From positions 13,623 through 77,622 of the IMG/VR virus record IMGVR_UViG_3300020577_013934: 64,000 nt of DNA; one strand, 5' to 3'. Source of the DNA: a virus (lineage: Duplodnaviria > Caudoviricetes). The position numbers and the translations under genes are program-made. Below, in pieces: positions 37,445-63,817 of the stretch; within the stretch, counting starts at the first letter, position 1; each line of letters opens with the position of its first letter. A model generated the notes under the pieces. The model ran no database searches. It was given only the letters and a program-made list of their open reading frames with translations, and was not told the DNA's origin.

Positions 37445-38368
37445 TCAGATCGAGGAGGGCGGGGTGTCGAACACCAGCTGCTGCATCGACTCGGCGTTGC
37501 CGATGCCGATGCCGGGCGCGGCGTACGAGAAGAACGTGATGATGTCCGCGCGCTGCTCGATGAAGAGCGTCGCGTCCTGGAGCAGGAAGAAGTTCCCCAG
37601 GAAGTTCTGCGGGCTGAAGATCCAGCACTCGCGCGGGTTGTAGATGTCGGTCTTCGCGGTCGTGATGACCGGGATGCCCCAGAGGCGCTCCTCCTTGTCG
37701 ATGCCCTCCTCGTAGTGCTTCCGGGCGATCGAGTCGCCGATCAGCGTCGCGGGGAGGTTCATCGCCTCGCGGTACAGCGAGTTGGTCATCAGCATCTTGC
37801 CGATGGGGCGGCGACGGTTGTCCATCGCCTGGAAGCCCTTCACGAACGCGCCGTTCGTGAACGCGCCGACCGACGTGCGCTGGTTCGCCGCGTTGCGGTT
37901 CACGAGCGTGAGGCACGTGCGGCGGAAGTACAGGTCCTCCTGGTCGGCGAGGTCCTTCACCGAGTTGTCCGCGAGGATCTTGCGGATGTCGTTCTGGTAC
38001 GACATCAGCTTGAACTTGCTCTTCGTGAACAGGTCGCTCTGGGTCTTGCCGAAGTAGACCACGTAGCGCTTGCCCCGGAACCAGCGCGCGCGCGGCGTGC
38101 CGTCGAACTGCACGTACGTGGCCGAGGAGTCGGGCTCCTTCTCCACGATCTTGCGCGGCTCGTCCGAGTCGACATCGCGGTCGATCTCGTCGTCCTGGAG
38201 CGGCTGCGGCAAGAGGACCATGCGTACGGCCGCCTCCTGGCGGACGATGCTGCGGATGAACGCCGTGCCGGCCTCCTCCGCGAGCTTGGTGTTGCCGGAG
38301 CTGAGCATGCTCACGAACTTCTGGTTCAACGCAGTCGCGTTGGCCTGGACCGTCTCGGTGTTGTACAT
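37445..38368 (-). CDS. Major capsid protein (HK97 fold, inferred)
   Basis: 307 aa; highly biased codon usage; position after the protease/scaffold/decoration genes; FIR...RQE, IVEKEP, DLADQED pattern. Confidence 0.75.
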   Translation of the reverse strand: MYNTETVQANATALNQKFVSMLSSGNTKLAEEAGTAFIRSIVRQEAAVRMVLLPQPLQDDEIDRDVDSDEPRKIVEKEPDSSATYVQFDGTPRARWFRGKRYVVYFGKTQSDLFTKSKFKLMSYQNDIRKILADNSVKDLADQEDLYFRRTCLTLVNRNAANQRTSVGAFTNGAFVKGFQAMDNRRRPIGKMLMTNSLYREAMNLPATLIGDSIARKHYEEGIDKEERLWGIPVITTAKTDIYNPRECWIFSPQNFLGNFFLLQDATLFIEQRADIITFFSYAAPGIGIGNAESMQQLVFDTPPSSI

Positions 38369-40587: not shown

Positions 40588-42495
40588 TCAGCGCCAAACG
40601 CAGCGGCTGATGTTCGCGACGAGACGTGCGACGTTGAGGCCCGGCGCGCCGTGCGCGTCGCCGGTCTCGACCTCCGCGCCTTCGACGAGCGCGGCGACCT
40701 TGTCGGCCAGCGGCGTCGCCGCGAGCCATCGAGCGTACGCCGCGCCGCCCGCGCTCGCGACCTTTGCGAGCAGCGCGGCGTAGTCGGCGCGGCCGACGCG
40801 CTCGACGAGGTCGGCGGCGGCCTTGTGCACGACGTCGGCCCGCGCGGGACGCGCGAACGCCGAGACCTTCACGAACTCGGTTCCGCCCGAGACGGGCACG
40901 CCCTGGTCCGTGAGGTAGCGGCCGTAGCGGTAGGGTCGGATGCGCTTGCGCAGCGCGCGCTGCGTCGCGTAGCCGGCCGCGAGGCCCGCCGGCAGCGACC
41001 AGACGCCGGCCCCGGGGCCGAGCGCGGCGCGCAGGCCGCCCGCGTAGAGCGCGCCGAGCAGCGCCGTCGAACCGAGCTGCGCCTTCACGTCTTCGTTGTG
41101 CGCCGCCATCGCCGCGCCGCGCGTCGTCTGGTACTGGCGCCCCGTGTAGGGGTCGGAGAGCGTGAACACGTCGGTCTTCGCCGGCTCGGTCGCGCGGTAG
41201 TACGCGCCCGGTCCGATCGGCAGCTGGCCGAGGTCGCTCGGCGCGTACGCTTGCTGGCGCAGGTAGTCGAGGACACCGCCGCGCTTCTCGACCCACGCCG
41301 CGAGCGGGTCCACGAGCTCGTCGTTTACGGCGTCGACGCGCAGCGCGACGAGCGCGCCGAGCTTCGCCTCGACGTCCGGGTAGCGCGCCACGACCTCGGT
41401 CAGCACCGGCTCCAACGCGACGAGGCGGTCGAGGTCCGCCTCCGTCGGCGCGACGCCCGCCGTCTTGGCGAACAGGTCGATGACTTCGCCGGTCGCGAGC
41501 ACGACGCCGCACGCCGCGAGCGACGACAGCGTGCGTGTCACGCCCGCCGTCTTCGCCGCCGCGTAGACGGCGTCGGGCAGGCGGGGCCACTCGCCGACGA
41601 GGCTGGCGGCCTGTACGCCGTAAGCGGTGCCGAGGGCCTCGGCCGTCTTCGCGGCGCCGCTGCGGATCTCGATCGCGCGCGCCTCGTACGCCCGCAGCTG
41701 CTCGCCCAGGTCGGCGCTGTAGCGCAGCGGCGCTTCGCCCGCGACCTTCTTCATCATCCACCCCGTGGGGTCCGCCGGGCGGAACACGAAGCTGATGTCG
41801 AAGAACTTCGGACTGGGGTTGAGCACCGCGACCTTGCGGCCGTCGGGCAACACGCGGCGCAGCATCCGCAGCGCGTGCTCGCAGTACTGCGCGCGCGTCG
41901 GGGCGCGGTGGCCGCAGATCGTGCAGACGTCCCACCGGACGTGGCACCCCATCGAGACCGCCGGGAAGTCGCCGTCGCCGATGCGCTGCGCGATCTCCGG
42001 GTCGCGGCCGTTGACGAACTTCAGCAGCAGCTCGACCCGGTGCATGTACGGGTTGAGCAGCGCCTTGTTGATCCAGCCGAGCGACTTCGACGGGTCCTTG
42101 TTGACGTGGTGCTTGTAGATGCCGCCGTGCTTCTCGAACGACTGGTAGTGGTGGTGCAGCGTCTCGGGCTCGGCGATCCAGCCGTCGAGCGAGCCGGTAC
42201 ACTCCGGGTGTCCGCACGACGCGAGCTCGCCGACCTTGTACGGCGCGTTCGGGAAGCCGTCGCCGTTGCGGTTGTCGTCGTAGAACTCGTACGCGCCGAG
42301 CGCGTTGACGAGGATGTACGAGACGCCGGCCTCGGGCTGCACGGTCGTCAGGAAGTCGTAGAGCGGGGAGTGCCCCTCGGCGAACGCGCGCTTCTCGATG
42401 CTCAGTCCGCCGCGTGGCCCGCGCCACGCGACCAACTGCACCGTCGGCTCCCCGGTCTTTGGGAAGCGCTCGTCCAGTTCCAGGAGCTTGTCCAT
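40588..42495 (-). CDS. Prohead maturation protease (HK97/assemblin-like) with zinc finger and long C-terminal extension
   Basis: YKHHVNKD, AVSMGC, CTICGH...YCEH, FFDISFVFRPAD resemble caudoviral prohead protease motifs; position upstream of scaffold/MCP. Confidence 0.7.
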   Translation of the reverse strand: MDKLLELDERFPKTGEPTVQLVAWRGPRGGLSIEKRAFAEGHSPLYDFLTTVQPEAGVSYILVNALGAYEFYDDNRNGDGFPNAPYKVGELASCGHPECTGSLDGWIAEPETLHHHYQSFEKHGGIYKHHVNKDPSKSLGWINKALLNPYMHRVELLLKFVNGRDPEIAQRIGDGDFPAVSMGCHVRWDVCTICGHRAPTRAQYCEHALRMLRRVLPDGRKVAVLNPSPKFFDISFVFRPADPTGWMMKKVAGEAPLRYSADLGEQLRAYEARAIEIRSGAAKTAEALGTAYGVQAASLVGEWPRLPDAVYAAAKTAGVTRTLSSLAACGVVLATGEVIDLFAKTAGVAPTEADLDRLVALEPVLTEVVARYPDVEAKLGALVALRVDAVNDELVDPLAAWVEKRGGVLDYLRQQAYAPSDLGQLPIGPGAYYRATEPAKTDVFTLSDPYTGRQYQTTRGAAMAAHNEDVKAQLGSTALLGALYAGGLRAALGPGAGVWSLPAGLAAGYATQRALRKRIRPYRYGRYLTDQGVPVSGGTEFVKVSAFARPARADVVHKAAADLVERVGRADYAALLAKVASAGGAAYARWLAATPLADKVAALVEGAEVETGDAHGAPGLNVARLVANISRCVWR

Positions 42496-42530
42496 CGCGG
42501 AGAAAGATACGACCGTCGCGCGCGACGGTG

Positions 42531-43280: not shown

Positions 43281-43500
43281 CGTGCAGCTCCTTGTAGGCC
43301 GCGATGCCGTCGCGGACGATTCCCTGGTTGACGTGGTCGACGGCGACCTTCACCGCCAGGGCCTTGACGACCTCGGGCAGCGTCGGCGCGGCGGGCGGGT
43401 AGCCGCCGTTGCGGTGGAGCACCTCGAACGCGAGCTTCGCCCAGCCGTGGGTGCGCAGAGCCGCGCGGAGGCGCGGCGAGACGAGGGTGTTGATGTTCAT
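43270..43500 (-). CDS. Small hypothetical protein
   Basis: ATGA overlap; KLA, KVA. Confidence 0.55.
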   Translation of the reverse strand: MNINTLVSPRLRAALRTHGWAKLAFEVLHRNGGYPPAAPTLPEVVKALAVKVAVDHVNQGIVRDGIAAYKELHGDG

Positions 43501-45657: not shown

Positions 45658-45685
45658 CGGCGTGCCTCAAAGGTAAGGGGCGTTT

Positions 45686-46390: not shown

Positions 46391-46400
46391 GATGAGTTGA

Positions 46401-49055: not shown

Positions 49056-49077
49056 CGGGGTGGGTCTCCTCAAAAGC

Positions 49078-49114
49078 GAACGCCTGCTGCCGAAGTATAC
49101 GGCAGCAGGCGTTC
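49078..49114 (-). promoter_or_regulatory. 15-bp perfect hairpin with TATACTT loop (terminator and/or promoter)
   Basis: gaacgcctgctgccg-TATACTT-cggcagcaggcgttc then gcttttg on the minus strand, between two genes. Confidence 0.6.
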
Positions 49115-49147
49115 AGACCCAGCGCGACGCGGCTTTGGGCTTCGCGA

Positions 49148-50795: not shown

Positions 50796-51440
50796 CTAGG
50801 TCGCGGGGGTCGTGTCGTCAGTCATCGCGAGCGGGGAGTTGCTCTTCCACGCGCGCATCAGGTGCTTCGGCACGTCGAGCTCGATGTTCTCGGGCGTCGG
50901 CGCCGGGGCGGGCCTGGGGTCGAACTTCGAGCCGACGTAGCGCGCGGCGCCCTGGACCGCCCCCTGGAGGGGAATGCCGAGCAGGCCGAGGCGGGCCGTG
51001 AACGGCGCCGCCGCCATGCCCGCCACGGCGTGCGCGATGTCGCCTTTGCGCGTCTCGGGGTCGCCGCGCAGCGCGACGTTGCCCAACTCCAGCGCCGGCA
51101 TACCCACCGACAGGGCCTTGAGCCACGTCGGCGAACCCGGCGAGAGGTAGAAGTCCTTGGCGTGGCCGCCCATCGTGCGCGCGACGCTGCCGGTCTGCTT
51201 GTAGCGGTCGCGCAGCTGCTGCGCCACCGTGATCGGGCTGCCGAACACGGCCTCGCGCCCGAACTCGGCGACGTGCTTGCCGAACGCCTTGGCCTTGTTG
51301 GCGATTCCGGGCGCGGCGGGGGCCACGGCGTGCTCGCGGAACAGGTCCTTGAGCCCGTACCGTCCGAGCACGCGCGCCCGTGCCGCTGTCTTTACGGCGT
51401 TCAGCCGCTCCGCGAAGTCAGAATGCACCGCCGGCTCCAT
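50796..51440 (-). CDS. Putative head-internal protein
   Basis: KTAARARVLGRYGL motif; Gly-zipper segments; start re-assigned to ATG 51440. Confidence 0.55.
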   Translation of the reverse strand: MEPAVHSDFAERLNAVKTAARARVLGRYGLKDLFREHAVAPAAPGIANKAKAFGKHVAEFGREAVFGSPITVAQQLRDRYKQTGSVARTMGGHAKDFYLSPGSPTWLKALSVGMPALELGNVALRGDPETRKGDIAHAVAGMAAAPFTARLGLLGIPLQGAVQGAARYVGSKFDPRPAPAPTPENIELDVPKHLMRAWKSNSPLAMTDDTTPAT

Positions 51441-53217
51441 GGTGAAGTTCCGCGCCGAAAGCATACGCCGGCACCGGGTGCGTGCCGTGGATGTCGGCGG
51501 TCTCGCCGAAGTGCGCCGCCTCCTGGATCGTGCTCTTGAGGTAGCGGTGCGCCAACCGCGCCATCCAGTCCTTCTCCAGCAGCGGGTTCATCGTGAACGG
51601 CTTCATGACGAACTCGACCGGCGGCATGCTGCGGTTGACGTAGACCTCCGCGACGCCGTGCGCCTTGAGCTCGCGCGCCAGGGCCGGCGTGACGGGCGTG
51701 CCCACGGTGTGGTGCAGCACCTCCTGCCCGAGGCGCTGCCCCACGGCGTCGGCGACCGGCACGCGCGTCGTGCCCGCGCGGTACGCCTCGCGGAAGGCGT
51801 TGTAGTTGACGATGTCGCCCTTGAGCAGCTCCGGGTGGTCGGGGTCCGCGTCGAGGAGCCGCACGTGGTTGATCTCGCTCTTGGCGAGCAGCTCCAGGTG
51901 GCGCCGGTCGAGGTTGATGCCCTCGTTCTTGTACAGGCCGTGCAGCGCGTCGACGAAGTACGCGCGCCCGGCGCCGAGCCCCTTGTAGCCGACGACCTTC
52001 GCCGGGTGCGGTACGCCGCTCGTCAGCGCGTCGCCGCGCTCGACGACGTCGCCGACCTTCGCGCGTAGTGTCAGGTCGGGCCCGGCGTAGACCTTCTTCG
52101 CTCCGAGGTGGACGTAGTGGCCGCCCTGCGGCGCCGCCTCGATCTTCGTGACGGTGCCGTGCTCGGGCGCGAGCACCGCCTCGTGGCGAAACGCCGCCGG
52201 CACCTCCAGCATCTGCCGCACGCCCTTGAGCCCCGTCGGCGCCTTGTCGGTCGCCTTCACGGTCAGCGTGCCGTGGCGCGACGACAGCGCCATCTGCGTC
52301 AGCGGCTCGGCCATCGCCTGCGCGGCGCGCACGCCCACGGTCATGCCGATCGGGTGCAGCTGCCCCTTCTCGTTGTGGCCCTGGCACATCTGGCAGACGC
52401 CGTGCTGCGCGACGCACGTCATCGGCGACCGCACGAGCAACCGGTCGACGTGCTTCGCCTTGAGCTGCTGCACGAGCTGCGGCGTGACGAGCGTGTTGCG
52501 CGGCAGGCCGTGGTCGGCCTGGGTGTAGCGGTCGAGCACGTGCCCGTCGTCGACCGACATCTTTACGCCGTTCACGGTGCCGCAGTCGTTCGTCGTCACG
52601 ACCTTCGAGATCATGTTGGCGACGAGCACCTTCGCCATCTCGCCCGGCTCCGAGACCGAGATGCGGGCCTTGACCTCGTTCTCGCGGATCTCGGGCCCCG
52701 TCATCCAGTACTGCGCGGGCGTCAGGCCCTCGGCGTACGACCGGTCGATCAGCTGGTGGAGCACGCCGTGCTTCGGGTGCACCGTCGCGAGCGGCGTCGC
52801 CACGATCTTCATCAGCTGCGCCGGATTGCCGCGCGCGCCCGAGAGCGCCATGTGGGTCATCGAGCCGGGGTGCTGCTTGGTGTGCGCGAGCAGCTGCTCC
52901 TGCGTCTCGACGATCACGCGCTCACGCGCGGCGGGGTCCTTGAGCTTCTCCAGCTTCGCGAGCGCCGGCCGCACGATCGCGTCGCGGGCCTCGTAGTCGG
53001 GCTCGATGTCGTCAAGCCCGACCGAGATGCCCTCCAGCGTCGCGATCTCGTCGCCGCGACGCTTGAGCGCGAGCACCGTCGAGACGTACTTCTGGGGGTC
53101 GGCCTTCGCGAGACCGACGACGTGGTCGTGCAGCGCCTTGTTCGTGAGTGGGCCCGTGATCTCGTAGCCCTTGGGCATCACGTCGTTGATCAGGAACTGT
53201 CCGACCGTCGTCGCCAT
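51418..53217 (-). CDS. rpoC: Phage multisubunit RNA polymerase, beta-prime C-terminal half
   Basis: TTVGQFLIN, GISVGLDD, MALSGARG, YAEGLT, NDCGT, RSPMTC..GVCQMC, AAQAMAEPLTQMALSSRH (trigger loop). Confidence 0.92.
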   Translation of the reverse strand: MATTVGQFLINDVMPKGYEITGPLTNKALHDHVVGLAKADPQKYVSTVLALKRRGDEIATLEGISVGLDDIEPDYEARDAIVRPALAKLEKLKDPAARERVIVETQEQLLAHTKQHPGSMTHMALSGARGNPAQLMKIVATPLATVHPKHGVLHQLIDRSYAEGLTPAQYWMTGPEIRENEVKARISVSEPGEMAKVLVANMISKVVTTNDCGTVNGVKMSVDDGHVLDRYTQADHGLPRNTLVTPQLVQQLKAKHVDRLLVRSPMTCVAQHGVCQMCQGHNEKGQLHPIGMTVGVRAAQAMAEPLTQMALSSRHGTLTVKATDKAPTGLKGVRQMLEVPAAFRHEAVLAPEHGTVTKIEAAPQGGHYVHLGAKKVYAGPDLTLRAKVGDVVERGDALTSGVPHPAKVVGYKGLGAGRAYFVDALHGLYKNEGINLDRRHLELLAKSEINHVRLLDADPDHPELLKGDIVNYNAFREAYRAGTTRVPVADAVGQRLGQEVLHHTVGTPVTPALARELKAHGVAEVYVNRSMPPVEFVMKPFTMNPLLEKDWMARLAHRYLKSTIQEAAHFGETADIHGTHPVPAYAFGAELHHGAGGAF

Positions 53218-53249
53218 GGCCAAAGGTTACGCGCTCGCCGACGCGGCGC

Positions 53250-53588
53250 CTACTGCTGTTGCTGCGACGCGGCCTGCCCCGCGCCGAACATCCGCCCCGC
53301 GCCGTACGCCGCCGCGCCGCCGGCCGCCGCCGCGCCGAGCGCCTTGCCCGCCGCCGGCACGCCGCCCGCACGCTGGAACCCCTTGGCGCCGGCCGCGATA
53401 CCCTTGCCGAGGTTTTGCATCATGCTGCCGCCGCCGTGCTGGTACGCCTTGGTGCCCGCGCCGAGCGCGCGCGTCGCCGCCCCGCCGAGCGTCGACAGGA
53501 CGCCGCTGAGCTTGTCCAGGCCGTACCGGGCCAACACCTTCTGCGCGCCGCGCGCCCGCGCGGCGTCGAGCGCCTCCTTCGTGATCAT
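53250..53588 (-). CDS. Small Gly/Ala-rich protein with RYGL motif
   Basis: TGATG coupling; ARARGAQKVLARYGLDKLS; Gly zippers. Confidence 0.6.
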   Translation of the reverse strand: MITKEALDAARARGAQKVLARYGLDKLSGVLSTLGGAATRALGAGTKAYQHGGGSMMQNLGKGIAAGAKGFQRAGGVPAAGKALGAAAAGGAAAYGAGRMFGAGQAASQQQQ

Positions 53589-53965
53589 CAGACTCCTCCG
53601 TACGTGATGTTGCGGCTCAGGCCGTTGCGGTCGCCCGGTTCGTTCGGCATGCCCATTGGCGCGCCCCACAGCGAGTCACCCGTGCGCTTCGGCGCGACCG
53701 GCTCGTCGCCGTAGCCGAAGTTGCTCTGGGCGAAGAGCTTCGCCAGCGCCTCGATCGGTTCGCCCGACTCGTCGAGCAGGGCGTACTTGGCGGCGACCTT
53801 GCGGATCGCGCGCGACCGGGCCTCGCTCGCGAGCTTCTGCTTGGCGGCGTCGCCGAAGCTCTTCGTTACGCCGTAAAAGCCCGGCTCCTTGTCGAAGTGG
53901 AAGCCGCGCTGGCGCTTCTTGAGGCGCGTCGTGACGCCGCGCGCGATGTTCTTGAGGTCAGGCAT
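53588..53965 (-). CDS. Small basic hypothetical protein
   Basis: TGATG coupling; RAIRKVAAKYAL motif. Confidence 0.55.
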   Translation of the reverse strand: MPDLKNIARGVTTRLKKRQRGFHFDKEPGFYGVTKSFGDAAKQKLASEARSRAIRKVAAKYALLDESGEPIEALAKLFAQSNFGYGDEPVAPKRTGDSLWGAPMGMPNEPGDRNGLSRNITYGGV

Positions 53966-54447
53966 CAGCACTCACTCCGAAGGTAGCGGCGCATGTCGTC
54001 GGCGTGCTGCTGGTCCACCAGCGCGCCCTCCTGCGCGAGCGCGTTGAGGGGCACGTCGTCGGCCGTCGCGCGGAACAGCTCCGACCACTTGGCGACGACC
54101 TCCAGCTCCATGGAGAGCAGCGACTCGAAGACGGCGCGCGGGTCGTTCAGGCCCACGAGCGCCGTCGGAGCCGGGTCGGCGTGCGCGTCGGCCCCGAGCG
54201 CGGTGATCTTCTTGTTCAGCTCGTAGATGAACTCGCGCTCTTCTTTGATGTGCTCCTGGAAGTGCTGGTAGATGCCGTCGCGGCAGAAGGCCCGCAGCTG
54301 GTCGCCGTAGTGGATGTAGGCGAGCAGCAGCGCGTACTTCTTCGACAGGATGGCCTGGAGGCACGGCACGTGCGCGCCGGCCGCCGGGGCGGCGTCGGGG
54401 GTCTTGGGCTCTGCGTGGCCGAGCAGGTCATCCAAGAAGTCGAACAT
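53965..54447 (-). CDS. Ferritin-like (bacterioferritin/Dps-type four-helix bundle) protein
   Basis: Y..H...FQEHIKEEREF..EL.KKI.ALG; SMELEV; DQQHAD di-iron-type spacing. Confidence 0.7.
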   Translation of the reverse strand: MFDFLDDLLGHAEPKTPDAAPAAGAHVPCLQAILSKKYALLLAYIHYGDQLRAFCRDGIYQHFQEHIKEEREFIYELNKKITALGADAHADPAPTALVGLNDPRAVFESLLSMELEVVAKWSELFRATADDVPLNALAQEGALVDQQHADDMRRYLRSEC

Positions 54448-57400
54448 CAGGGTCCTCGTCCTCGTCGCCTTCGCCCGTCAGCAGCTCCGGCGGGAAGTAG
54501 GATAGCGCCTCGTCGGGCTCGACGGGATAGAACGGCGCCGGCAGCTCCGCGCCCATGCCGTACCCGTCGGCCAGCTCCTCGTCCTCGGCGCGCTTCTCGT
54601 TCTCGATCTCGATGGCGTCCGAGAGCTTCAGCTCGCCGCGCCGGTACGCCGCGAGCGCGTCCTCGCGCGTCTTGAACTTGCGCACCGGCCCCGTCGGCGT
54701 CGTGTGCTTCGCCGCGAGCGTGAACGCGATGATCGCCTCGTGCTGCGGGAAGACCATCAGGCGGTTTCGCTGCTGGTCGCTCAGCAGCATGTTGCTGAGC
54801 GTCATCTGCTTGGCGTCCGCGACGGCCTCGGCGCCGATCGGGAAGTGCACCTGCAAGGTGTCGCCGTCGTAGTCCAAGTTCATGCCCTTCTCGGTGAACG
54901 AGGACACGCGAATCGTCTTGCCCGGCACCGGCTTCGCGTACGCCGCGACGATCGAGCCTCGGTGCAGCGTCGGCGCGCGGTTGATGATCGCCGGGCGCTC
55001 GCGCGTCTCGGCGAGCAGCGCGTCGCGCGCCGCCGGGGCCTTCGCGTTGACCAGCTCGCGCGCCTGGAGCGCCGGGTAGCCGGTGCGGATCAACCGCGCG
55101 ACGACCAGCTTGTCGAGCGACTGCCAGAGCATCGGCTCGGGGATGCCGACCTCGTCCATCCCGAGGTTGGAGTCCGGCACGGCGGTGCCGCGCCCCGACA
55201 CGTCCTGCGTGCGGCGCATCAGCTTGCGCTGGAAGAAGCCGCCCTTCGGCGTGCCGACGCCCGCCACCGAGGCGAGCAGGCCCTTGACCTTCTGCTGCTG
55301 GAGCTTCGGGTCGCGCGGCAGCGTCGTGCCGTACAGCTCCTCGACCTTCTCGTAGAGGTCCTGGCGGTGCTTGCCCAAGTCCGACTCCACGGCCGTCGTC
55401 TTCAGCGTCTTGTTGGAGTCGAAGAGCTGGCCGTACAGCTTGTTGGCGTCGGCGACCATCAGCTGCGACGGGTCGCGCACGCCCGGCTGGATCGGGCGAA
55501 ACACCGGCGGGATCACCGGCACCTTGCTGATCACGTACGCGTCGGCGGGGCTGAGCTTGTGCGCCTGGAGCGCCTCCAGGTACTTGATCTGCTTCACCAC
55601 GTCGTTGAGCGCGGGGCCCTTGGCGTTCTTCAGCTGCTCGCGCAGCTCGCGCAGCTTGCGCGGCACGTCGATCTTCGCCAGCTCGGACCGGAACCACGCG
55701 CCGCCGTTGGCGCGCAGCGCCTCCTTGAACTTCGGCTCGGTCATCCCGAGCAGCCGGCGCACCGGCTCCTCGAAGACCGGGTTCGGCACCGGCTCGTGCA
55801 AGTCGATGTGCGCGAAGAGCGTGCCCTGCGTGCCGCCGGTCTTGCGCGGGTCGAACAGGCCGCCGGTCTCCGGCTTGAGGTCCTTCGCGCGCACCGTCGC
55901 GCCGTGCTCGATCGCGCCCGCGCTGCGCGCGAGCACGTCCTTGTCGGTCATCGGCAGCAGCGCGAACTTCGAGCCGCGCTTGTCGACCTTGACCCCGGAC
56001 CCTTCGAGCAGCCCGAGGAACTTGTTGAACGCGAACGACGGCTTCGGCGCCGGCAGCGGCAGGCCCGTCTGCACGGCCTTCCAGTACTCGTCGTTCTTCT
56101 GGCCGCGCACCGTCGCCGCCTCGCGCAGGAAGTTGCGCGCGTTGTGCGCGAGCAGCGCGTCGAACTCCATCTTGCCGAGGCCCTTGGCGCTCTCGTCGCC
56201 GCCGGTCTTCAGGGGCTGCTCGTTGAGGTCGTACGGACCGACGCCGTGCCCGGCGAAGTTGGTGTCCGTGCTCTTGAACAGCTTGTAGATGTACTGCTTG
56301 CCGACGAGCACGCCCTTGCCGTCCGCGCCGACGACCTTGCGCTGGAGCACCGGGTCGTAGAGCTCCTCCTTGTCCTTGACGCCGTGCTCGCGCATCAGGT
56401 TGCGCGCCCACTTTACGGCGTTATGCCCCGCCGCGTTGTCGTAGACGATCGGCTTGCCGGTCTTGTCCGCCACCTTCGCGACGGCCGTCTCGATGACCTG
56501 CGCGGGGTTGATGCGCGACACGACGCCGGCCGACGTGAGCAGCAGGTCGAGCGGGTGGCCCTGCTCGTCGCGCAGCATCTCGTGGTCGGGCACGATCTTG
56601 GCGACGACGCCCTTGTTGCCGTAGCGGCCCGCGAGCTTGTCGCCGACCTGCATGGCCTCGCGCGTCTTCACGAGGATCGTGATCTGGCCGCTCGCCCGCA
56701 CCACGTCGACGACCTCGCCGGGCACGCCGTGGTCCCAGACCAGCGCGACGTCCTTGAACGGCTTGATCAGCGACTTGCCGAGGCGCCCGAGCATCGCGTC
56801 GGTGCCCGTGACGGCCTGCTTCATCAGGCCGGCCACGAGCACGTCCTTCGGGTCGACCTTCGCGCCCTTCTTGACCACGCCGCTCTCGTCGAGCTTGCTG
56901 TACATCGACGCGGGGTACTTCGCGCCGTAGTAGAGCTGGTGCTTCGCGCGGTTCAGCTCGATCCCCGTGCCGAGCGGAAAGACCTCGCGGTACATGTGCT
57001 CGCTGGTCAGCTTCTGCGCCGCCGCCGCCGAGATCACCACGGCGTCGTTCGAGTTGTACCCGTAGTACGGCAGGTAGCCGACGCGCAGGTTCTTGCCCAG
57101 CGCGAGCACGCCGTCGCGCGTGTAGTTCGACTCCGCGAGGCGCTGGCCCTCCTCGACCTTGTCGCCCGGCTTCACGTCGACGGCGTGGTCGAGGAACGTC
57201 TTCGACGGGAACGGGAACTTCTTGTAGTAGGGCACCTTGACCAGCGCTGCGTCGCCGGCCGCGCCCCGCTTCTCGGCGTGCGGCTTGATGTACACGAACT
57301 GGTCGTCGACCTTCGCGACGGTGCCCGCCACGGGCGCGGTCGGCACGATCATGTGCCCGTAGATCGCCTCGAACGAGTGGCCGTCCGGGTGGTGCGACAT

Positions 57401-58972
57401 GACCTGCACGAGCGGCGCCTCGCGCTCGACGAGCGGGAGCGCCTGCGTCCCCATCTTCGAGCCCATGATCGCGCGGTTGCCCTGGATCGAGTGGATCATC
57501 GGGATCAGCGACGTCGCGGGCGAGTACAGGTGCTTGACGTGTCCGAGCTGGTGCGTGACGCGCGACGCCGGGACGCGCGTCTGGTGTCCGTCGACGAACG
57601 CGTCGACCGTGCCCGTCAGCTCCTGGTGCGGAAACGCGACGACGTACTTGTGCAGGTCGCCCGCGCGGACGAAGTCGTCCTTCCCCGTCTTCACGTTGCG
57701 CAGCACCGTGTAGAGGTTGCCCTTGTCGTCGCGGTGCGCCGCGATCGTCGCGCGGATGTCGACGCCGGAGTGGTTCGACTCCGGCGTGCGGATCGGGTCG
57801 AGCGCGCCGAAGTGCGTGTTGTGGATCATGCGCGCGTCCAGCGGGATCGCGCGGTCCGACGGGATGCCGCCCTCGCCGAGGCTCGTCACCTTCACGGCGT
57901 GGTCGATGATCTCCATCGGGTTGATGCCCGTCGGCACGCTGGAGAGCGACGAGGTCGTGAGGAACTTGCGGATCGAGTCCGAGAACGGCGCCGGCTTGAG
58001 CGCCTCGCGGATCGAGCTCTTGCCCGTCAGCGCCATCTTCGCCTTGGGCGCCCACTGGCGCGCGGTCAGGCGAACGCGCTCCGCGACGAAGTCGTCCAGG
58101 GCGTGGAACGTCTTGAACTTCAGCGAGTCGGTGTCGTCGACCGGTGTCTTGCCCGCGTGCACGTCGAGCATCTTCTTCGCGGCGACGAGCAGCGCGTCCG
58201 GCGTCACCTTCGTGTGTGCGGCGCCGAGCGTCACGCTCGTCACCTCGGGGTCGAGCGTCGACTGGTCGTAGCGCTTGCGGATCGCCTCGACCTTCGCCTC
58301 GTGCGGCGCGTTCGCGTCCATCACCGCTGGGTGCTCCAGCTTGGCGTAGAGCTTCCCGATCGCCGTCGCGGTCTGGTGGCCGTGCTCCTCCTCGTTGGCG
58401 CGCGCGACGCCCTCGCCGAGGTGTTTGGCGATTTGCGCGTGCTCGACGCCCAGTCCGCGCAATACGGCGTAAAGGGGCAGGTTCGACGTGCCGTACTGGA
58501 GGTGGAACGTGCCCTTGTCGGGGTTGAACGCGAGGTCGAAGTTCTTGCCGCGTCCGAGGTTGAACACCGTCTTGAGCTCGCCGTTTTCGGCGCGCTGGGT
58601 GTAGACGCCGGGCTTGCGTCGCAGTTGGTTCGCGACCTGATACTCGTTGCCGTCCGCGATGACGGTGTGCCGCGCCGTCAGGAACGGCACGTGAGCGAGC
58701 GTGAAGTTCTTGGCTTCGTCGACGACCTTGCCGTGCGCGTCCTTGAGCACGAGCGTGCCCTTGACCGGCTCGTAGAGCGACGAGCCTTTGGTGATCGCCG
58801 CGTACTCCTCCGCCGGACCGAAGTCCTGCGCGTGCACGCGCACGTCCTTGACCTCCAGCGTTCGCCCCTTGAGGTCGAGCGGGAACGCCGCCGTCAGGGC
58901 CTGGGTCGTCTTGTCGTGCAGCTTCTGGCGCAGCGTGGTGGCGCTGGTCAGCACGGGCGTCAGCTCGTTCAT
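54428..58972 (-). CDS. rpoB: Phage multisubunit RNA polymerase: complete beta fused to the catalytic N-terminal half of beta-prime
   Basis: NQLRRKPGV, GDKLAGRYGNKG, SRINPAQ, GKMEFDAL (beta); KPETGGLFD, VPVIPPVFRP, DVSGR, NRAPTLHR, NLDYDGD (beta-prime active site, 54860-54880). Confidence 0.95.
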   Translation of the reverse strand: MNELTPVLTSATTLRQKLHDKTTQALTAAFPLDLKGRTLEVKDVRVHAQDFGPAEEYAAITKGSSLYEPVKGTLVLKDAHGKVVDEAKNFTLAHVPFLTARHTVIADGNEYQVANQLRRKPGVYTQRAENGELKTVFNLGRGKNFDLAFNPDKGTFHLQYGTSNLPLYAVLRGLGVEHAQIAKHLGEGVARANEEEHGHQTATAIGKLYAKLEHPAVMDANAPHEAKVEAIRKRYDQSTLDPEVTSVTLGAAHTKVTPDALLVAAKKMLDVHAGKTPVDDTDSLKFKTFHALDDFVAERVRLTARQWAPKAKMALTGKSSIREALKPAPFSDSIRKFLTTSSLSSVPTGINPMEIIDHAVKVTSLGEGGIPSDRAIPLDARMIHNTHFGALDPIRTPESNHSGVDIRATIAAHRDDKGNLYTVLRNVKTGKDDFVRAGDLHKYVVAFPHQELTGTVDAFVDGHQTRVPASRVTHQLGHVKHLYSPATSLIPMIHSIQGNRAIMGSKMGTQALPLVEREAPLVQVMSHHPDGHSFEAIYGHMIVPTAPVAGTVAKVDDQFVYIKPHAEKRGAAGDAALVKVPYYKKFPFPSKTFLDHAVDVKPGDKVEEGQRLAESNYTRDGVLALGKNLRVGYLPYYGYNSNDAVVISAAAAQKLTSEHMYREVFPLGTGIELNRAKHQLYYGAKYPASMYSKLDESGVVKKGAKVDPKDVLVAGLMKQAVTGTDAMLGRLGKSLIKPFKDVALVWDHGVPGEVVDVVRASGQITILVKTREAMQVGDKLAGRYGNKGVVAKIVPDHEMLRDEQGHPLDLLLTSAGVVSRINPAQVIETAVAKVADKTGKPIVYDNAAGHNAVKWARNLMREHGVKDKEELYDPVLQRKVVGADGKGVLVGKQYIYKLFKSTDTNFAGHGVGPYDLNEQPLKTGGDESAKGLGKMEFDALLAHNARNFLREAATVRGQKNDEYWKAVQTGLPLPAPKPSFAFNKFLGLLEGSGVKVDKRGSKFALLPMTDKDVLARSAGAIEHGATVRAKDLKPETGGLFDPRKTGGTQGTLFAHIDLHEPVPNPVFEEPVRRLLGMTEPKFKEALRANGGAWFRSELAKIDVPRKLRELREQLKNAKGPALNDVVKQIKYLEALQAHKLSPADAYVISKVPVIPPVFRPIQPGVRDPSQLMVADANKLYGQLFDSNKTLKTTAVESDLGKHRQDLYEKVEELYGTTLPRDPKLQQQKVKGLLASVAGVGTPKGGFFQRKLMRRTQDVSGRGTAVPDSNLGMDEVGIPEPMLWQSLDKLVVARLIRTGYPALQARELVNAKAPAARDALLAETRERPAIINRAPTLHRGSIVAAYAKPVPGKTIRVSSFTEKGMNLDYDGDTLQVHFPIGAEAVADAKQMTLSNMLLSDQQRNRLMVFPQHEAIIAFTLAAKHTTPTGPVRKFKTREDALAAYRRGELKLSDAIEIENEKRAEDEELADGYGMGAELPAPFYPVEPDEALSYFPPELLTGEGDEDEDPDVRLLG

Positions 58973-59045
58973 CGCAAGCGAAGTCTAGCGGCTGTACGCG
59001 GTAAAAGCCCATGGTGGGCCCTTCTGCCCGCCGAAGGAGATTCGC

Positions 59046-59099
59046 ATGCTCATCCGATCGGTCTTCCGGTTCGTCATCTTCGTCGTGGGTCGGCGCTGA
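59046..59099 (+). CDS. 17-aa hydrophobic/basic micropeptide MLIRSVFRFVIFVVGRR
   Basis: GAAGGAGA RBS; TGATG coupling to the next gene; missed by the ORF track. Confidence 0.5.
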   Translation: MLIRSVFRFVIFVVGRR

Positions 59100-59410
59100 T
59101 GTTCGCGTTCAAGTGCCACCGCACCTACATCAACGACTGCCGCTGGGCGCGCCAGCTCTGCGCGGTCGACGAGGTCGAGGCGTACGAGCTGCTGAGACGC
59201 TCGCCGTACGTCAAGCGCGACGACCCCGACACGCAGGGCACGATGCTCAACAAGGGCTTCTGCCTCGTCGAGGTCCGCGACGGCTGCGCGATCCTGGTCT
59301 ACAACCACGACGGCAGGTACTACCTGTACACGGCGCCGGCCGCCGAGGCCCTCGCCGCGCTCAACCTTCCACCGCTCGACGCAGAAAGCACCCCCGCGCA
59401 TGGCACGTGA
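59099..59410 (+). CDS. Hypothetical protein
   Basis: Coupled ATG 59099; GC3-rich codons. Confidence 0.6.
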   Translation: MFAFKCHRTYINDCRWARQLCAVDEVEAYELLRRSPYVKRDDPDTQGTMLNKGFCLVEVRDGCAILVYNHDGRYYLYTAPAAEALAALNLPPLDAESTPAHGT

Positions 59411-59582
59411 CGTCTTCGTAGTGATCCGCCTCTCCGTGACCGACGACGACGACCTCGACGACGACGCGCTCGTCGAGGCGGTCGAGGACGGCATCGACCA
59501 GGGCGAGATCACCGTCGACGGCCTGGACGTCGGCGAGACCGAGGTCGTCGGCGTCTACGCCGAAGAGCCCAAGCCGCAGTGA
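59400..59582 (+). CDS. Small acidic protein
   Basis: D/E-rich 60 aa; overlaps the upstream stop. Confidence 0.55.
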   Translation: MARDVFVVIRLSVTDDDDLDDDALVEAVEDGIDQGEITVDGLDVGETEVVGVYAEEPKPQ

Positions 59583-59610
59583 CGACCCGCGCGCCTCGGG
59601 GCGTGCCGCG

Positions 59611-60021
59611 CTACAGACGCGGCACGCCTCGGGGCCGGGCGCGCGCTTCGTTTTGCGGCTCCTCGGGCTCTTCCCACGCGATCGTGACGTAGATCTCGCC
59701 ACGGTCGTTCGAGAACTCGCGCGCGCCGAGCTTCCACGGCCCGGCGTTGCCCGCGTTGCGGATGCGGTTCATCAGCGCCACGTACTCGTCGTGGCGCGTG
59801 TGCGGGCAGACGTAGTCGCCGGCATCGGGCAGCAGCTCGGGCTGCTCCTTGATCGCGTCCTTGCAGCGGTTGCAGCCGCCCCACGGCCGGAACACCGAGT
59901 AGGTCTCGTGGAAGACCTTGAGCCGGCGCGGGCGCTCCTCGGCGGGCTCGGCGAAGCCCGTGCGCGGGCCGCGCTGCGCCTCCTCGCGGTCCGACCGCTG
60001 GCGGTCCATCCAGTCTTCCAT
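59611..60021 (-). CDS. Hypothetical protein with Cys/His zinc motif
   Basis: CNRC...CPH; follows the portal gene. Confidence 0.6.
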   Translation of the reverse strand: MEDWMDRQRSDREEAQRGPRTGFAEPAEERPRRLKVFHETYSVFRPWGGCNRCKDAIKEQPELLPDAGDYVCPHTRHDEYVALMNRIRNAGNAGPWKLGAREFSNDRGEIYVTIAWEEPEEPQNEARARPRGVPRL

Positions 60022-60022: not shown

Positions 60023-61744
60023 TCAGACCTGCGCCTTCATCGAAGCCATCTGATCCTGCTGCATCTGTTCTAGCAGCTCTTTCGTGACGCAGTACATGAT
60101 GAAGTCCTCGCCCTTGAGCGAGTCGAGGCGCGAGCGCTTCGTGCCCGCGTCGTACTGCGCCATCTCCTGCGCGATCGGCTGCGCCTTGGCGATGATGGCC
60201 TGCTGGTCGTACGCGAGGCCGCCCTGCGCCTGGAGCGCCTGCTGCTGCGACTGCGTCGAAAGCGACTGCTGGAGCTTCTGGAGCGCGACCTGCGTCTCCT
60301 GCTCGGCGCGGGCGTCGGCGAGCGCGTCCTCGCGGCGCTGCTTGCGCTCGTGGTCGAGGTCGATGTCGAGCATCTCGGCCATCGTCGTGTTCGAGAGCAG
60401 CTGGCTCTGCCACAGCTGGATCTTGAGCTGCTTGTTCTCGACGTCGTCGATCATCTTGAAGTCGGCGAGGCGCATCTTGATCGACGCCCAGCCCATGAAC
60501 AGCGCGACCTTGCGCTCGACCCACTGGACGAGCGCGTTGAGGTTCTCGATGTGCGTCTGGAGCTGGTTCTCGATCATGCGCAGCGTGATCTCGCCGCGCG
60601 TCTGCCCGAGGCCGCCCGCGAGGAACTCCATCGGCACGCCGAGCGAGAGCACGATCGACTTCTCGGCCTCCTGGAGCTCGCCGAGCGTGAGCAGCGCGCG
60701 GCCCTCGCCGCCGACGTTCTGCACGCCCACCGGCACCGGCGAGAACTGGATGCGCAGCGGGTCCCGGCGGAAGAGCCGCCAGTTGCGCTCCATCTCCGTC
60801 TTCCAGCGGTCGAGCGGGATGGTCGTGATCGGGTCGCCCTGCCCGCTGGCCGCGAGCGGGTGGATGATCCTGAACGGCGTAATGTGCTCCAGCGCAATCG
60901 CTTCGTTTGCGCGGCGGAGCACCGCCGTGAAGAGAAAGTTCTTGATCGCGCTCGTGATCGGCGGGAAGCCCCACTGCGCCTGCACGCCGGCCGGCCCCGG
61001 CATCTTCAGGTGGTAGAGCGCGCCGTCCGCGAACCGGAAGGTCTTGCGCTCCTGCATCGCGCGCAAGATCTCCATCGGCATGTGGTTGATGAACGTCTTG
61101 TTGCCGGCCCGCACCTTCGACACGTCGTCGCGCGGGATCTGGTAGTAGTAGACGCTCTCGCCCGTGACGCGGTTGTGCTCGATGTCGATCAGCTTCGGGT
61201 CCCAGCGGATCAGCGTGATCTTCGTCGCGTCTTCGAGCTTGTAGTCCTCGACCGTCGAGAGCACCGCCTTGCGCTTGCACTGCTTGCAGTCGTGGGTGAA
61301 CTGGAGCTTCGGCAGGTTGAACTTGTAGTTCGCCGCGCCGACGTCCTCCTTCGTGCCGCAGTTCGGGCAGACCAGCTCGCGCTTGATCGGCTCGTACACC
61401 GAGACGAACGCGTTGCCGTAGAGCCACACGTCGTAGCTCACCAGCGTCAGGAAGCCCTTGAGGCGGAGGTCCTCCTCGAAGAGCTTCTTGTGCCGCGCCT
61501 TCTCCTCCTCCGAGTTCGACTCGTAGATGAAGCGGGTGATCGGGTACTCGCCGAACTTCCGCACGACGCCGTAGACGTGCGCCGAGTGGAAGCCGAGGTA
61601 CTCTGCCCACTTGAACAGGTCCTTCAGCTTCCGGGGCACGAACCCGGTCAGGTAGTCAAACATCGGGTTCGGGTGCGACGCCGCGTGCCGTCCGCCGAAG
61701 CCCAGCAGCGTGTCGTCGAAACCCATTCCACCGTCGATGGTCAT
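60023..61744 (-). CDS. Probable portal protein with zinc-ribbon insertion
   Basis: 573 aa at the head of the morphogenesis block; WLYGNAFV, QWGFPPI, IVLSLGVPMEFL portal-type motifs; CPNC...CKQC insertion. Confidence 0.65.
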   Translation of the reverse strand: MTIDGGMGFDDTLLGFGGRHAASHPNPMFDYLTGFVPRKLKDLFKWAEYLGFHSAHVYGVVRKFGEYPITRFIYESNSEEEKARHKKLFEEDLRLKGFLTLVSYDVWLYGNAFVSVYEPIKRELVCPNCGTKEDVGAANYKFNLPKLQFTHDCKQCKRKAVLSTVEDYKLEDATKITLIRWDPKLIDIEHNRVTGESVYYYQIPRDDVSKVRAGNKTFINHMPMEILRAMQERKTFRFADGALYHLKMPGPAGVQAQWGFPPITSAIKNFLFTAVLRRANEAIALEHITPFRIIHPLAASGQGDPITTIPLDRWKTEMERNWRLFRRDPLRIQFSPVPVGVQNVGGEGRALLTLGELQEAEKSIVLSLGVPMEFLAGGLGQTRGEITLRMIENQLQTHIENLNALVQWVERKVALFMGWASIKMRLADFKMIDDVENKQLKIQLWQSQLLSNTTMAEMLDIDLDHERKQRREDALADARAEQETQVALQKLQQSLSTQSQQQALQAQGGLAYDQQAIIAKAQPIAQEMAQYDAGTKRSRLDSLKGEDFIMYCVTKELLEQMQQDQMASMKAQV

Positions 61745-61771
61745 CGCTTCTCCAACCGAAAGGAGTAACAC

Positions 61772-63817
61772 ATGCTCGTAGCGGGCACCTTACTCAGAAA
61801 GTCTATCCCCGTGTTTCGCGTGCCGGCGCCCGAGCAATCGTTCCTCGCGCGAGCGTGGGGCGGCGTGCATTCCGACGGCGCGTGGCTCTTCCCCGCCTAC
61901 TTCCCGTTCGCCAAGTGGGTGTTCGAGGACCTGCGGAAGCTCGCGCCCCAGGCGGCGTGGGACGACGCCGCCCGCGACCACCTCGCCGCCGTCCGCGCCG
62001 CCGACAAGGCGTGGGACGCCGCCGCCGCCGCGTGGGAGCGCCGCGAGCCGGCGCCCCTGCCGGTCGACGACGACTTCTTCACCCCCGGCTTTACGCCGTA
62101 CACCCACCAACGCCTCGGCATCGCGCGGCTCGTCCACTGGTGGCGCTCGTTCCTCGACTGGGACATGGGCACCGGCAAGACCCGCACCGCGATCGACGCG
62201 TTCCGCGTGCTCCGCCGCCAGGGGGAGTTCCGGCGCGCGCTCGTCCTCGGCCCGCCCGTCGTGCTGGAGTCCTGGGCCCGCGAGGTCGCGCGCTGCTCGC
62301 GCGGCGCGTGGAAGGCCGTCATCTGGGACGGCACGCCCGAGGCCGAGGCGGCGGCCCAGACCGCCGACGTCGTCCTGGCGTCGTACACCCGCGTCCGCAT
62401 GGAGCGCGAGGCGGCGCACGACGCCGCCCGCGAGCTGGCGATCACCCCCGCGCAGCGCGAGCGCTACAAGCTCGCGCCGCTCACCGAGGCCGACGTCGCG
62501 CGGCTCACGCGCGCCGCGTCCCACCCCCTCCACGCGCTCGACTACGACACCATCGTCGCGGACGAGAGCCACTACCTCGGCAACTGGGCCTCGGGCCAGA
62601 CCCAGGCCGCGATCGAGCTGTCCGCCAAGGCCGTGCGCCGCTACTGCCTCAGCGGCACGCCCGGCGACGACCCCCGCAAGCTCTACGGCCAGCTCTACTT
62701 CCTCTCCCCGGCGCTCGTGCCGCTCCCGTACCACAAGTTCGAGGAGCACCACGTCGTCTACTCGCCCAAGAACAAGCACGTCGTCGTCGGCTTCCGCTTC
62801 CTCAACGAGCTCAACGAGCGCTTCCGCAGCGTCGCGCTGCGCATGAAGAAGTCCGACTGCCTCGACCTGCCGCCGGTCACGACCGTCGACCTGCACTTCG
62901 ACCTCGGCGTCGCGCAGCGCGCCCGCTACAACGAGCTCGTCATGGAGATGGCGATGTCCGTGACGCCGGAGCTGCTCTACGCCGAACCGGCGCGCGTCAC
63001 CGAGGAGTTCGCGGCGCAGCGCCAGTCGGTGCGGCTGCCGCACGGCGCGACGCGCGTCAACAAGATGCTCCAGGTCTTGTCCGGTTTCGTGATCCAGGGC
63101 GCGGACTACTCGATCTGCGACGCGTGCCCCCGCATGGAGGCGTGCGTCGCGGCCAAGATCCGTCCCTACACCAAGAAGTGCGAGGTCGTGCAGGCGGCGC
63201 CCGAGCGGCGCGTCCTGCGCGACATCGAGAACCCGAAGCTCGACCTGTACAAGGATCAGCTCGCGCTGATCCTCGACACCGACGAGACCAACAAGGTGAT
63301 CGTCTGGGCGAACCTCACCGAGGAGCTCGACGACCTGGAGGCCGCGACCAAGGCCCTCGGCGTCGGCTACGTGCGCGTCGACGGCGCGACGCTTGCGCGC
63401 CAGAAGCGCATCGACAAGTTCCAGGACGACGCCAAGTGCCGCGTCTACATCGGGCAGGTCAGCACCGGCATCGGCATCACGCTCACGGCGGCGAACTACA
63501 CGCTCTTCTACTCGCTGCCGTGGGACCCGCTCCAGTACCGGCAGGCGATGGACCGGAACAACCGGCCGGGGCAGCGCCGCGCCATGACGGTCTACCGCCT
63601 GCTCACCTCCGACGCGTCGTGGGGCCTGGACCGCTACGTCGCGCAGGTCCTGCTCTTCAAGGAGGGGATCACGCTCACGCTGACCGACCTGATCGCGTGC
63701 GCCGGCTGCGACCGGCAAACGACCTGCGCGCGCGACGAGATCCTCCCCTTCCGGGCCAAGTGCAAGTACGCTGCGAACGTCGCGCGCCCCGTCGCCGACG
63801 TGGAGGTCATCGAGTAA
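61772..63817 (+). CDS. SNF2-family (SF2) helicase
   Basis: DMGTGKT, IVADESH, LSGTP, GIGITLT, QAMDRNNRPGQ; AAGGAG RBS. Confidence 0.92.
   Translation: MLVAGTLLRKSIPVFRVPAPEQSFLARAWGGVHSDGAWLFPAYFPFAKWVFEDLRKLAPQAAWDDAARDHLAAVRAADKAWDAAAAAWERREPAPLPVDDDFFTPGFTPYTHQRLGIARLVHWWRSFLDWDMGTGKTRTAIDAFRVLRRQGEFRRALVLGPPVVLESWAREVARCSRGAWKAVIWDGTPEAEAAAQTADVVLASYTRVRMEREAAHDAARELAITPAQRERYKLAPLTEADVARLTRAASHPLHALDYDTIVADESHYLGNWASGQTQAAIELSAKAVRRYCLSGTPGDDPRKLYGQLYFLSPALVPLPYHKFEEHHVVYSPKNKHVVVGFRFLNELNERFRSVALRMKKSDCLDLPPVTTVDLHFDLGVAQRARYNELVMEMAMSVTPELLYAEPARVTEEFAAQRQSVRLPHGATRVNKMLQVLSGFVIQGADYSICDACPRMEACVAAKIRPYTKKCEVVQAAPERRVLRDIENPKLDLYKDQLALILDTDETNKVIVWANLTEELDDLEAATKALGVGYVRVDGATLARQKRIDKFQDDAKCRVYIGQVSTGIGITLTAANYTLFYSLPWDPLQYRQAMDRNNRPGQRRAMTVYRLLTSDASWGLDRYVAQVLLFKEGITLTLTDLIACAGCDRQTTCARDEILPFRAKCKYAANVARPVADVEVIE

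Follow-up and report, generated by a model that had tools for sequence, protein, structure and literature searches.

A bacterial-type RNA polymerase with a beta::beta-prime-N fusion and a separate beta-prime-C subunit in the head module of a tailed phage

The stretch of DNA analysed here (the window) comprises the terminal 64 kb, positions 13,623 to 77,622, of a single 77,622-bp IMG/VR record, IMGVR_UViG_3300020577_013934, a linear viral contig with a CheckV completeness of ~45%. Two of its minus-strand genes almost certainly encode the catalytic core of a bacterial-type multisubunit RNA polymerase (RNAP), in which the beta subunit is fused to the N-terminal half of beta-prime (beta::beta-prime-N) and the C-terminal half (beta-prime-C) is a separate polypeptide. 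Judged by its sequence and gene neighbourhood, the enzyme is phage-borne and does not represent a host rpoBC. It is a variant of the phage multisubunit RNAP, and its clade is undescribed in the literature searched, where no paper on a fusion-plus-split RNAP arrangement was found. We favour, with moderate confidence, the reading that it constitutes the phage's single own RNAP core, packaged in the virion, using a sigma factor and possibly trimmed at K-x-A sites.

Because the window has a GC content of ~70%, real genes were picked by the GC content at third codon positions (GC3). Both RNAP genes are located within a long minus-strand block that runs from ~61.8 kb down to 30 kb, and their GC3 values (0.97 for the open reading frame (ORF) at 54428-58972 and 0.96 for the second RNAP ORF) constitute a strong coding signal. 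In Pfam, the ORF of 1514 amino acids (aa) matches Rpb2 domains 2, 3, and 6, followed by Rpb1 domains 1 (weakly) and 2 (Rpb2_6, E 7e-40; Rpb1_2, E 4e-18); the 601-aa ORF at 51418-53223 matches Rpb1 domains 4 (weakly) and 5. Bacterial beta chains from the PDB match residues ~80-1025 of the fusion (E 7e-70) and beta-prime chains residues ~1076-1460 (E 6e-33), while the C-terminal parts of beta-prime chains match the second ORF (E 2e-33). The order of beta and beta-prime motifs proposed by the initial annotation is borne out by both sources, and the profile search that it had suggested places the Rpb2 and Rpb1 domains in the expected halves. Among the hallmarks of a bacterial-type core, the catalytic lysine motif, the Asp triad, and the bridge helix, trigger loop and second Zn site are present; the N-terminal Zn ribbon is missing, and alpha and omega are not encoded alongside.

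The anatomy of the fusion (Table 1) was derived in E. coli numbering by alignment to bacterial subunits (Salmonella and S. aureus RpoB for beta). Its beta portion ends at position 1341 of the 1342 of E. coli beta, and the catalytic lysine motif is intact (GDKLAGRYGNKG at ~776, aligned to the E. coli-type GDKxxGRHGNKG). The equivalent of rifampicin (Rif) cluster I is changed at E. coli positions 513, 514, 516, 529, and 531, with H526 retained; as these are classical resistance positions, the enzyme is predicted to be insensitive to rifampicin. The clade members shown all share the LLP(M/L)TD motif of the connector. The following half of beta-prime holds the clamp helices and the catalytic barrel; the clamp-helix region and the beta flap are retained though divergent. 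The Zn ribbon (C70, C72, C85, and C88 in E. coli beta-prime) is deleted in every clade member shown, including the fully fused forms, and the Cys residues initially noted as missing from the window enzyme fall into a 32-residue deletion. The substitution of NLDYDGD for NADFDGD was likewise read correctly, with all three Asp residues of the triad aligned. The conserved fold stops at residue 1458 (E. coli beta-prime ~552) and gives way to an acidic tail, which is absent in Salmonella phage Arash, Vibrio phage D69 and 36 further distinct homologs, the latter ending at the fold/tail boundary.

The beta-prime-C subunit carries the bridge helix, the second Zn site (DCGT ... C..GVC..C) and the trigger loop with its His. 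An HMMER alignment to S. aureus and Thermus beta-prime spans all three elements and agrees with the initial annotation, also in the divergence of the bridge-helix region. The start was first placed at a TTG (53223); the ATG at 53217 (~E. coli beta-prime 571) is likelier, since the resulting 599 aa match two close relatives. The protein is 30-32% identical to Arash gp216 and to its D69 homolog. The split maps to E. coli beta-prime ~552-571, matching the cyanobacterial gamma/beta-prime boundary: fusion residue 1454 corresponds to residue 556 of the 625 of gamma, and residue 108 of beta-prime-C to residue 106 of RpoC2. According to PMC7598289, beta-prime of phiKZ/AR9 phages is split just past the catalytic barrel, as it is in cyanobacteria; the earlier statement that these phages are split differently does not hold for the beta-prime site, which is identical.

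Relatives of the enzyme are numerous. A word-indexed protein search with beta-prime-N as the query returned 785 proteins at E <= 1e-10; the best 120 all contain Rpb2_6 and Rpb1_2, share 57-96% identity and reside on contigs of up to 191 kb. An exhaustive search of 50%-identity representatives returned 1117 matches at E <= 1e-30, and nearly all of the best 150 are fused. Three pieces of the window enzyme were used to type 261 retrieved proteins: 208 represent beta::beta-prime-N without beta-prime-C, 28 are complete beta::beta-prime fusions (~2000-2100 aa plus inserts) and constitute more distant relatives, and the remaining 25 are short pieces or have only a short beta piece. A clean stand-alone beta-prime was found in none of the 261. 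NLDYDGD is the commonest variant of the catalytic motif (90 of 113 homologs with a recognisable motif), and nearly all homologs end 92-149 residues past the Asp triad. Many reach 2000-2600 aa through LAGLIDADG/Hom_end (intein-type) inserts (e.g., P0021-P0024, P0044, P0060, P0071, P0082, and P0086-P0091). The N.D.DGD motif is unrecognisable in seven top matches; in the five of these with large inserts of this kind, an insert may interrupt it. A homing-endonuclease gene interrupts the fusion gene in Vibrio phages D181 and D148.

The tree (51 sequences, 1420 columns; Shimodaira-Hasegawa (SH)-like support, and approximate likelihood-ratio test (aLRT) support from a fast search) was rooted with Salmonella, Acinetobacter, and S. 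aureus. All 29 split forms, including those of the window, Arash, and D69, constitute one clade (SH-like 0.993, aLRT 99.6), which sits inside the paraphyletic fully fused forms; this clade is independent of the root unless the root falls within it. The fully fused forms are phage-borne too, one being encoded on a contig with a terminase and a PAAR protein and another having a sigma gene nearby. The pattern suggests that an ancient fusion and the loss of the Zn ribbon were followed by a single split, by which the present form would have arisen once from a complete beta::beta-prime fusion. This history is provisional because of the few bacterial sequences and the long branch at the root.

Cultured relatives were found by tblastn of a phage collection, in which the whole fusion (96% coverage, 34-35% identity) is present in Arash, D69, D148, and D181, each with a separate beta-prime-C gene downstream. 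These phages share with the window the two-polypeptide architecture (~1525 and ~606 aa), the Zn-ribbon deletion and the connector. In Arash and D69, as in the window, the RNAP genes follow the portal gene and a small ORF, an SNF2 gene is a neighbour, there is one RNAP set, and alpha and omega have no match. The order common to the Arash/D69 comparison is a divergent SNF2 gene, portal, small ORF, fusion, small genes, and beta-prime-C, after which come gp218-like and gp220-like structural proteins, a protease-like protein (similar to gp222), the major capsid protein and more virion proteins. The window has the features of the Arash-like clade, namely the conserved connector, a protein end ~90-150 residues past the Asp triad, beta-prime-C a few genes downstream, and the head-module order of portal, small ORF, RNAP and, further on, capsid. 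It is set apart by only 30-35% identity, and Arash and D69 have AADYDGD in place of NLDYDGD, other genes between the halves, and neither the acidic tail nor the beta-loop insertion. Matches of the window to Arash include the portal (E 2e-93), the capsid (E 9e-62) and five other structural proteins. Both RNAP genes have the portal gene on one side and the protease-like and major capsid genes on the other, which confirms the reported adjacency to portal and head genes. The Arash paper labels the two proteins beta and beta-prime only and describes neither fusion nor split (PMC10585845).

Two rival explanations are both extremely improbable. According to the first, a bacterial rpoBC was captured recently or mis-binned, or the contig itself comes from a bacterium. 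Bacterial beta and beta-prime chains give the best matches among solved structures, but identity to bacterial subunits is only ~26-29%, and the neighbours are homologs of portal, protease-like and capsid genes instead of rplL, rplJ, and rpsL. The sequence is an IMG/VR viral record, hundreds of relatives share the fusion, the Zn-ribbon deletion and the connector, and no relative was found in one-per-species bacterial genomes. The phylogeny, proposed at the outset as the check for nesting within bacterial rpoBC, places the clade on a long branch apart from the three bacteria, and host synteny is absent. According to the second, an assembly or frameshift error makes a normal rpoB/rpoC pair look fused or split. 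Apart from the window being a single metagenomic contig, this idea has no specific support, and independent assemblies as well as the sequenced genomes of cultured phages show the same junction and stop position; the connector is conserved, and three real genes of high GC3 separate the halves.

Regarding accessory subunits, no Pfam match to alpha (PF01000) or omega (PF01192) was obtained in the complete Arash and D69 genomes or in the contig of the window, with positive controls recovered in 14 of 14 genomes; the phage enzyme might use a host alpha or omega. No sigma gene was found in the window or in the whole 77.6-kb contig. The initial report that alpha, omega and sigma are all lacking is accurate for the window itself, but for sigma it reflects truncation of the contig, which ends ~0.2 kb past the SNF2 gene, short of the position of the sigma gene in relatives (3-4 kb beyond SNF2). 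In two close relatives, L004 and L005 (91% and 74% identical), a Sigma70_r2 gene is located 7-8 kb upstream of the RNAP gene, past the SNF2 helicase; such a gene also lies beyond SNF2 in Arash and D69, and another next to the basal fused form P0222. Between SNF2 and sigma, L004 (3838-4653 and 2086-3174) and L005 (4284-5063 and 2706-3785) encode a PD-(D/E)XK nuclease and a ParB_N-domain protein, a block that would fall just outside the end of the window's contig. Dependence of the enzyme on a sigma factor is considered fairly probable. A simple scan of 50.5-62 kb revealed neither sigma-70-consensus promoters nor minus-strand terminators, which is uninformative for a phage with 70% GC. There is no obvious Shine-Dalgarno sequence before the RNAP gene (58973-59010, minus strand), and a TAGACT is located 9 nt upstream of the ATG, an arrangement that would agree with a transcript that is leaderless, or nearly so, and starts from a -10 box of the TAnnnT type.

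Packaging of the enzyme in the virion is suggested by data on Arash, in whose particles Gp206 yielded 3516 spectra, the most of any protein, Gp216 yielded 1210, and the sigma factor Gp10 was present (PMC10585845). The placement of the RNAP genes between portal and capsid is conserved across phages that are only ~35% identical. Because of these spectra and this conserved position, packaging is the better reading, and we regard it as reasonably likely.

The distribution of K-x-A motifs is consistent with site-specific processing. A K-x-A/G is located at most 12 residues from the end of the fold in 77 of 79 distinct tailed homologs (with Ala in 76 of the 77), compared with 14% of the 12-residue windows elsewhere in the same proteins. 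The site noted initially at the acidic tail (NEKRAED) is among these conserved ones, reading K-R-A at residues 1460-1462. Mid-size loops contain 5.1 K-x-A per 100 residues, in comparison to 0.47 in protein cores, and K-x-A occurs at both ends of 48 of 57 distinct long loop inserts, InPase-type domains among them. In the homologs P0013, P0017, P0045, P0095, P0105, and P0113, the beta loop houses InPase-type (PF18823), AAA_18, and pyrophosphatase domains bracketed by K-x-A. The loop at residues 563-579 is present only in the window's subclade and represents an insertion hotspot. The beta-prime-C subunit has no K-x-A where 3.8 are expected (z -2.0), which could reflect avoidance of cleavage sites. 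Within 39011-50764 on the minus strand, five head-module proteins show an excess of K-x-A over the level expected from composition: the 538-aa protein (z 3.1), the gp220-like 283-aa protein (5.3), the protease-like protein (2.9), and the 200-aa (4.7) and 206-aa (3.3) proteins. No over-representation was observed in the portal, capsid, tail-like or non-structural proteins of the window. The pattern fits a head-protease site marking detachable segments, and proteolytic trimming at K-x-A is a tentative suggestion from these counts.

The principal rival holds that the polymerase is a genuine phage enzyme but remains unpackaged, acting only intracellularly (in middle or late transcription, or in all phases after the first transcripts of the host RNAP); its detection in Arash would then be carry-over, and K-x-A a structural or interaction motif. 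We consider this possible though doubtful. Several observations speak for it or otherwise weigh against the favoured reading. The virion data come from Arash; the Arash particles were purified by sucrose gradient and pelleting only, the preparation contained 116 proteins, including metabolic enzymes such as ribonucleotide reductases, and its authors allow for carry-over of abundant proteins (PMC10585845). Spectral counts scale with protein length, and a single RNAP set must in any case also work after infection. Global enrichment of K-x-A in the window RNAP was rejected (12 observed, 12.6 expected from composition), and the loop sequence EKRGAA, initially counted as a K-x-A site, reads K-R-G, which is not a strict K-x-A. 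The counts among homologs derive from related sequences and are not independent events, and the loops are also rich in Lys and Ala. The motif of the acidic tail, tried as a shared packaging tag, was rejected, as it occurs on the contig only in the RNAP. The protease-like ORF has no Pfam match, even at E up to 10. The contig of the window enzyme is without a sigma gene, and a phage sigma could redirect the host RNAP instead. Finally, the tree is rooted by three bacteria on a long branch, and the node uniting the phage clade has low support.

Against the unpackaged alternative stand the conservation of the portal-capsid position across such divergent phages, the detection of both polypeptides together with sigma in Arash particles, the strict placement of the motif where a dispensable tail begins and at either end of inserts, and its absence from beta-prime-C. 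The virion-RNAP claim of the initial annotation is therefore upheld in part: the abundance of the homologs in Arash particles and the conserved head position speak for it, and K-x-A counts in its favour through its placement in the homologs, with no overall excess in the window RNAP.

In the favoured reading of a packaged, sigma-using core, the first polypeptide provides beta and beta-prime-N with the clamp helices and the Mg-binding barrel, and the second the bridge helix, trigger loop and second Zn site. The covalent beta/beta-prime link would probably replace the alpha-dimer assembly platform, given that complete relatives have no alpha or omega gene. Promoters would most likely be recognized with a phage sigma-70-family factor, encoded beside the module in relatives, and the flap and clamp helices are retained. 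The enzyme is probably made late, packed in the capsid and delivered with the DNA, so that early transcription could begin independently of the host enzyme. It may be trimmed at K-x-A by a head protease, which would remove the acidic tail and, in relatives, also free the domains inserted in the beta loop. A bolder version, which we consider rather unlikely, regards the RNAP as a capsid-delivered carrier matured by the head protease: the tail would act as a capsid-targeting or self-inhibiting propeptide, the loop enzymes would be released inside the capsid, the polymerase would be nicked but stay assembled, and sigma would be co-packaged.

Among known systems, the RNAPs of phiKZ, AR9, and SPN3US resemble the window enzyme as beta/beta-prime-type phage enzymes without alpha or omega. 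SPN3US combines a virion-packaged multisubunit RNAP with a motif-specific prohead protease (PMC10052503), and an SNF2-type helicase is associated with jumbo-phage RNAPs (PMC7824862). In phiKZ/AR9, however, beta comes as two or three polypeptides, none of them joined to beta-prime, whereas the beta of the window is continuous over ~1000 residues. These phages possess two paralogous RNAP sets (virion and non-virion), while the window clade has one, with a single Rpb2_6 match per genome in Arash, D69 and the window's contig and a single tblastn place per record. In place of a sigma-70-family factor, phiKZ/AR9 use a fifth subunit (gp68 or gp226), unlike the relatives of the window, which carry sigma-70-family genes; similarity to the window enzyme is limited to 21-27% over short stretches. 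According to Iyer et al., the RNAP-encoding (group 1) jumbo phages are without sigma, in contrast to the window clade, which has RNAP plus sigma. The mReC group of Weinheimer and Aylward (2020) likewise consists of tailed phages, mostly not jumbo, with bacterial-like beta/beta-prime recognized by standard profiles. Its screen required NADxDGD in beta-prime and proteins of at least 800 aa, and in the rows consulted beta (~900-1520 aa) and beta-prime (~900-1390 aa) are listed as distinct proteins (PMC7481178). The window differs in its fused protein, its NLDYDGD and its beta-prime-C of 599 aa, and the contig names of its relatives do not occur in the mReC supplements.

In Helicobacter and Wolbachia, the C-terminus of beta is joined to the N-terminus of beta-prime, the same orientation as at the window junction. 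In cells, the RNAP retains alpha, omega and the Zn ribbon and is encoded in a ribosomal-protein operon (checked for the Salmonella context), none of which was seen in the window. To our knowledge, no cellular enzyme has both a beta::beta-prime fusion and a beta-prime split.

Three small genes separate the two RNAP genes, as first described (Table 1). The ferritin-like gene, which overlaps the end of the fusion gene, is present in L004 and not in L005; the 127-aa gene has counterparts in the same place in both. The small ORF in the portal-RNAP gap contains a CxxC...CPH cluster in the window's subclade, which could bind metal; the Arash and D69 counterparts align weakly and do not have this insert. 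The 640-bp gap at 58973-59610 contains the plus-strand ORFs 59400-59582 (GC3 0.92) and 59011-59421, and L004 encodes a 95-aa opposite-strand gene at the equivalent place. For most neighbouring ORFs, Pfam and PHROGs returned nothing, and the small ORFs had no match at E up to 10.

Table 1. Features of the RNAP genes and of the surrounding head module, in window coordinates
Feature	Position	Strand	Basis or remark
SNF2-type helicase, divergent neighbour	61772..63817	+	Pfam, PHROG; homologs in Arash, D69, L004, L005
Portal gene	60023..61771	-	tblastn to Arash gp204 (portal), E 2e-93
Small Cys-containing ORF, 136 aa, in the portal-RNAP gap	59611..60021	-	Position kept in 5/5 genomes compared
beta::beta-prime-N fusion gene, 1514 aa	54428..58972	-	Pfam, PDB; 35% identity over 96% of length to Arash gp206
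Beta portion, residues 1 to ~1000	55973..58972	-	Alignment to Salmonella and S. aureus RpoB
Rif cluster I equivalent, residues 333-362	57887..57976	-	Alignment
Subclade-specific surface loop, residues 563-579, including EKRGAA	57236..57286	-	E. coli beta ~732-749
Connector of ~11 residues, beta C-terminus to beta-prime residue ~11	55940..55972	-	Alignment
Beta-prime N-terminal half, residues 1012-1458	54599..55939	-	E. coli beta-prime ~11-552
Site of the 32-residue Zn-ribbon deletion, residues 1037-1051	55820..55864	-	Alignment
Catalytic motif NLDYDGD, residues 1365-1371	54860..54880	-	E. coli beta-prime 458-464
K-R-A at the fold/tail boundary, residues 1460-1462; candidate processing site	54587..54595	-	Homolog conservation
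Acidic C-terminal tail, residues 1463-1514, with motif EALSYFPPE	54431..54586	-	52 residues
Ferritin-like gene, 160 aa	53965..54447	-	Pfam PF00210, E 5e-10
Conserved 127-aa gene, no assigned function	53588..53971	-	Counterparts 80% (L004) and 50% (L005) identical
Gly/Ala-rich small gene, ~112 aa from MITKEA	53250..53588	-	ORF reading
beta-prime-C gene, 599 aa from ATG at 53217	51418..53217	-	Pfam Rpb1_4/5; PDB beta-prime matches
Protease-like head gene, homolog of Arash virion protein gp222	40588..42495	-	phrog_18299 head maturation protease, E 8e-8; tblastn E 2e-40
Major capsid protein gene	37445..38368	-	40% identical to Arash gp226, E 9e-62

Some records of the phage collection call for caution. 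Those ranked below Arash and D69 were rejected as relatives because they are largely host DNA, and such sequences served as outgroups only; OR844998.1, for example, is host DNA with S. aureus-sized rpoB and rpoC. Bacterial-type rpoB/rpoC genes are, or seem to be, present in OR844998.1, OR846602.1, OR849902.1, and several 'Listeria phage LM' records; these are unannotated, with an UNVERIFIED flag where checked. Such records may be the source of PHROGs 24349 and 25354, which comprise full-length beta and beta-prime and are labelled 'unknown function'.

Phage multisubunit RNAPs are known mainly from phiKZ/AR9-type jumbo phages, with split subunits, no sigma and two sets. The clade described here constitutes a third solution, in which beta and beta-prime are covalently joined (possibly in place of the alpha scaffold), the Zn ribbon is missing, beta-prime is divided anew at the cyanobacterial and phiKZ site, and sigma-70-family factors are kept. 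As the clade is abundant in metagenomes and has cultured members (Arash and D69), it is open to experiment. The nested fused-to-split pattern provides a datable example of the re-partitioning of RNAP subunits and bears on the published argument that phage RNAP fragments are relics predating the last universal common ancestor and not secondary splits. If the capsid-delivered carrier reading is true, phages of ~170-190 kb would perform sigma-dependent, rifampicin-insensitive transcription independently of the host RNAP, a combination that does not appear in the jumbo-phage surveys searched; the K-x-A-bracketed inserts suggest a route by which phages might deliver extra enzymes.

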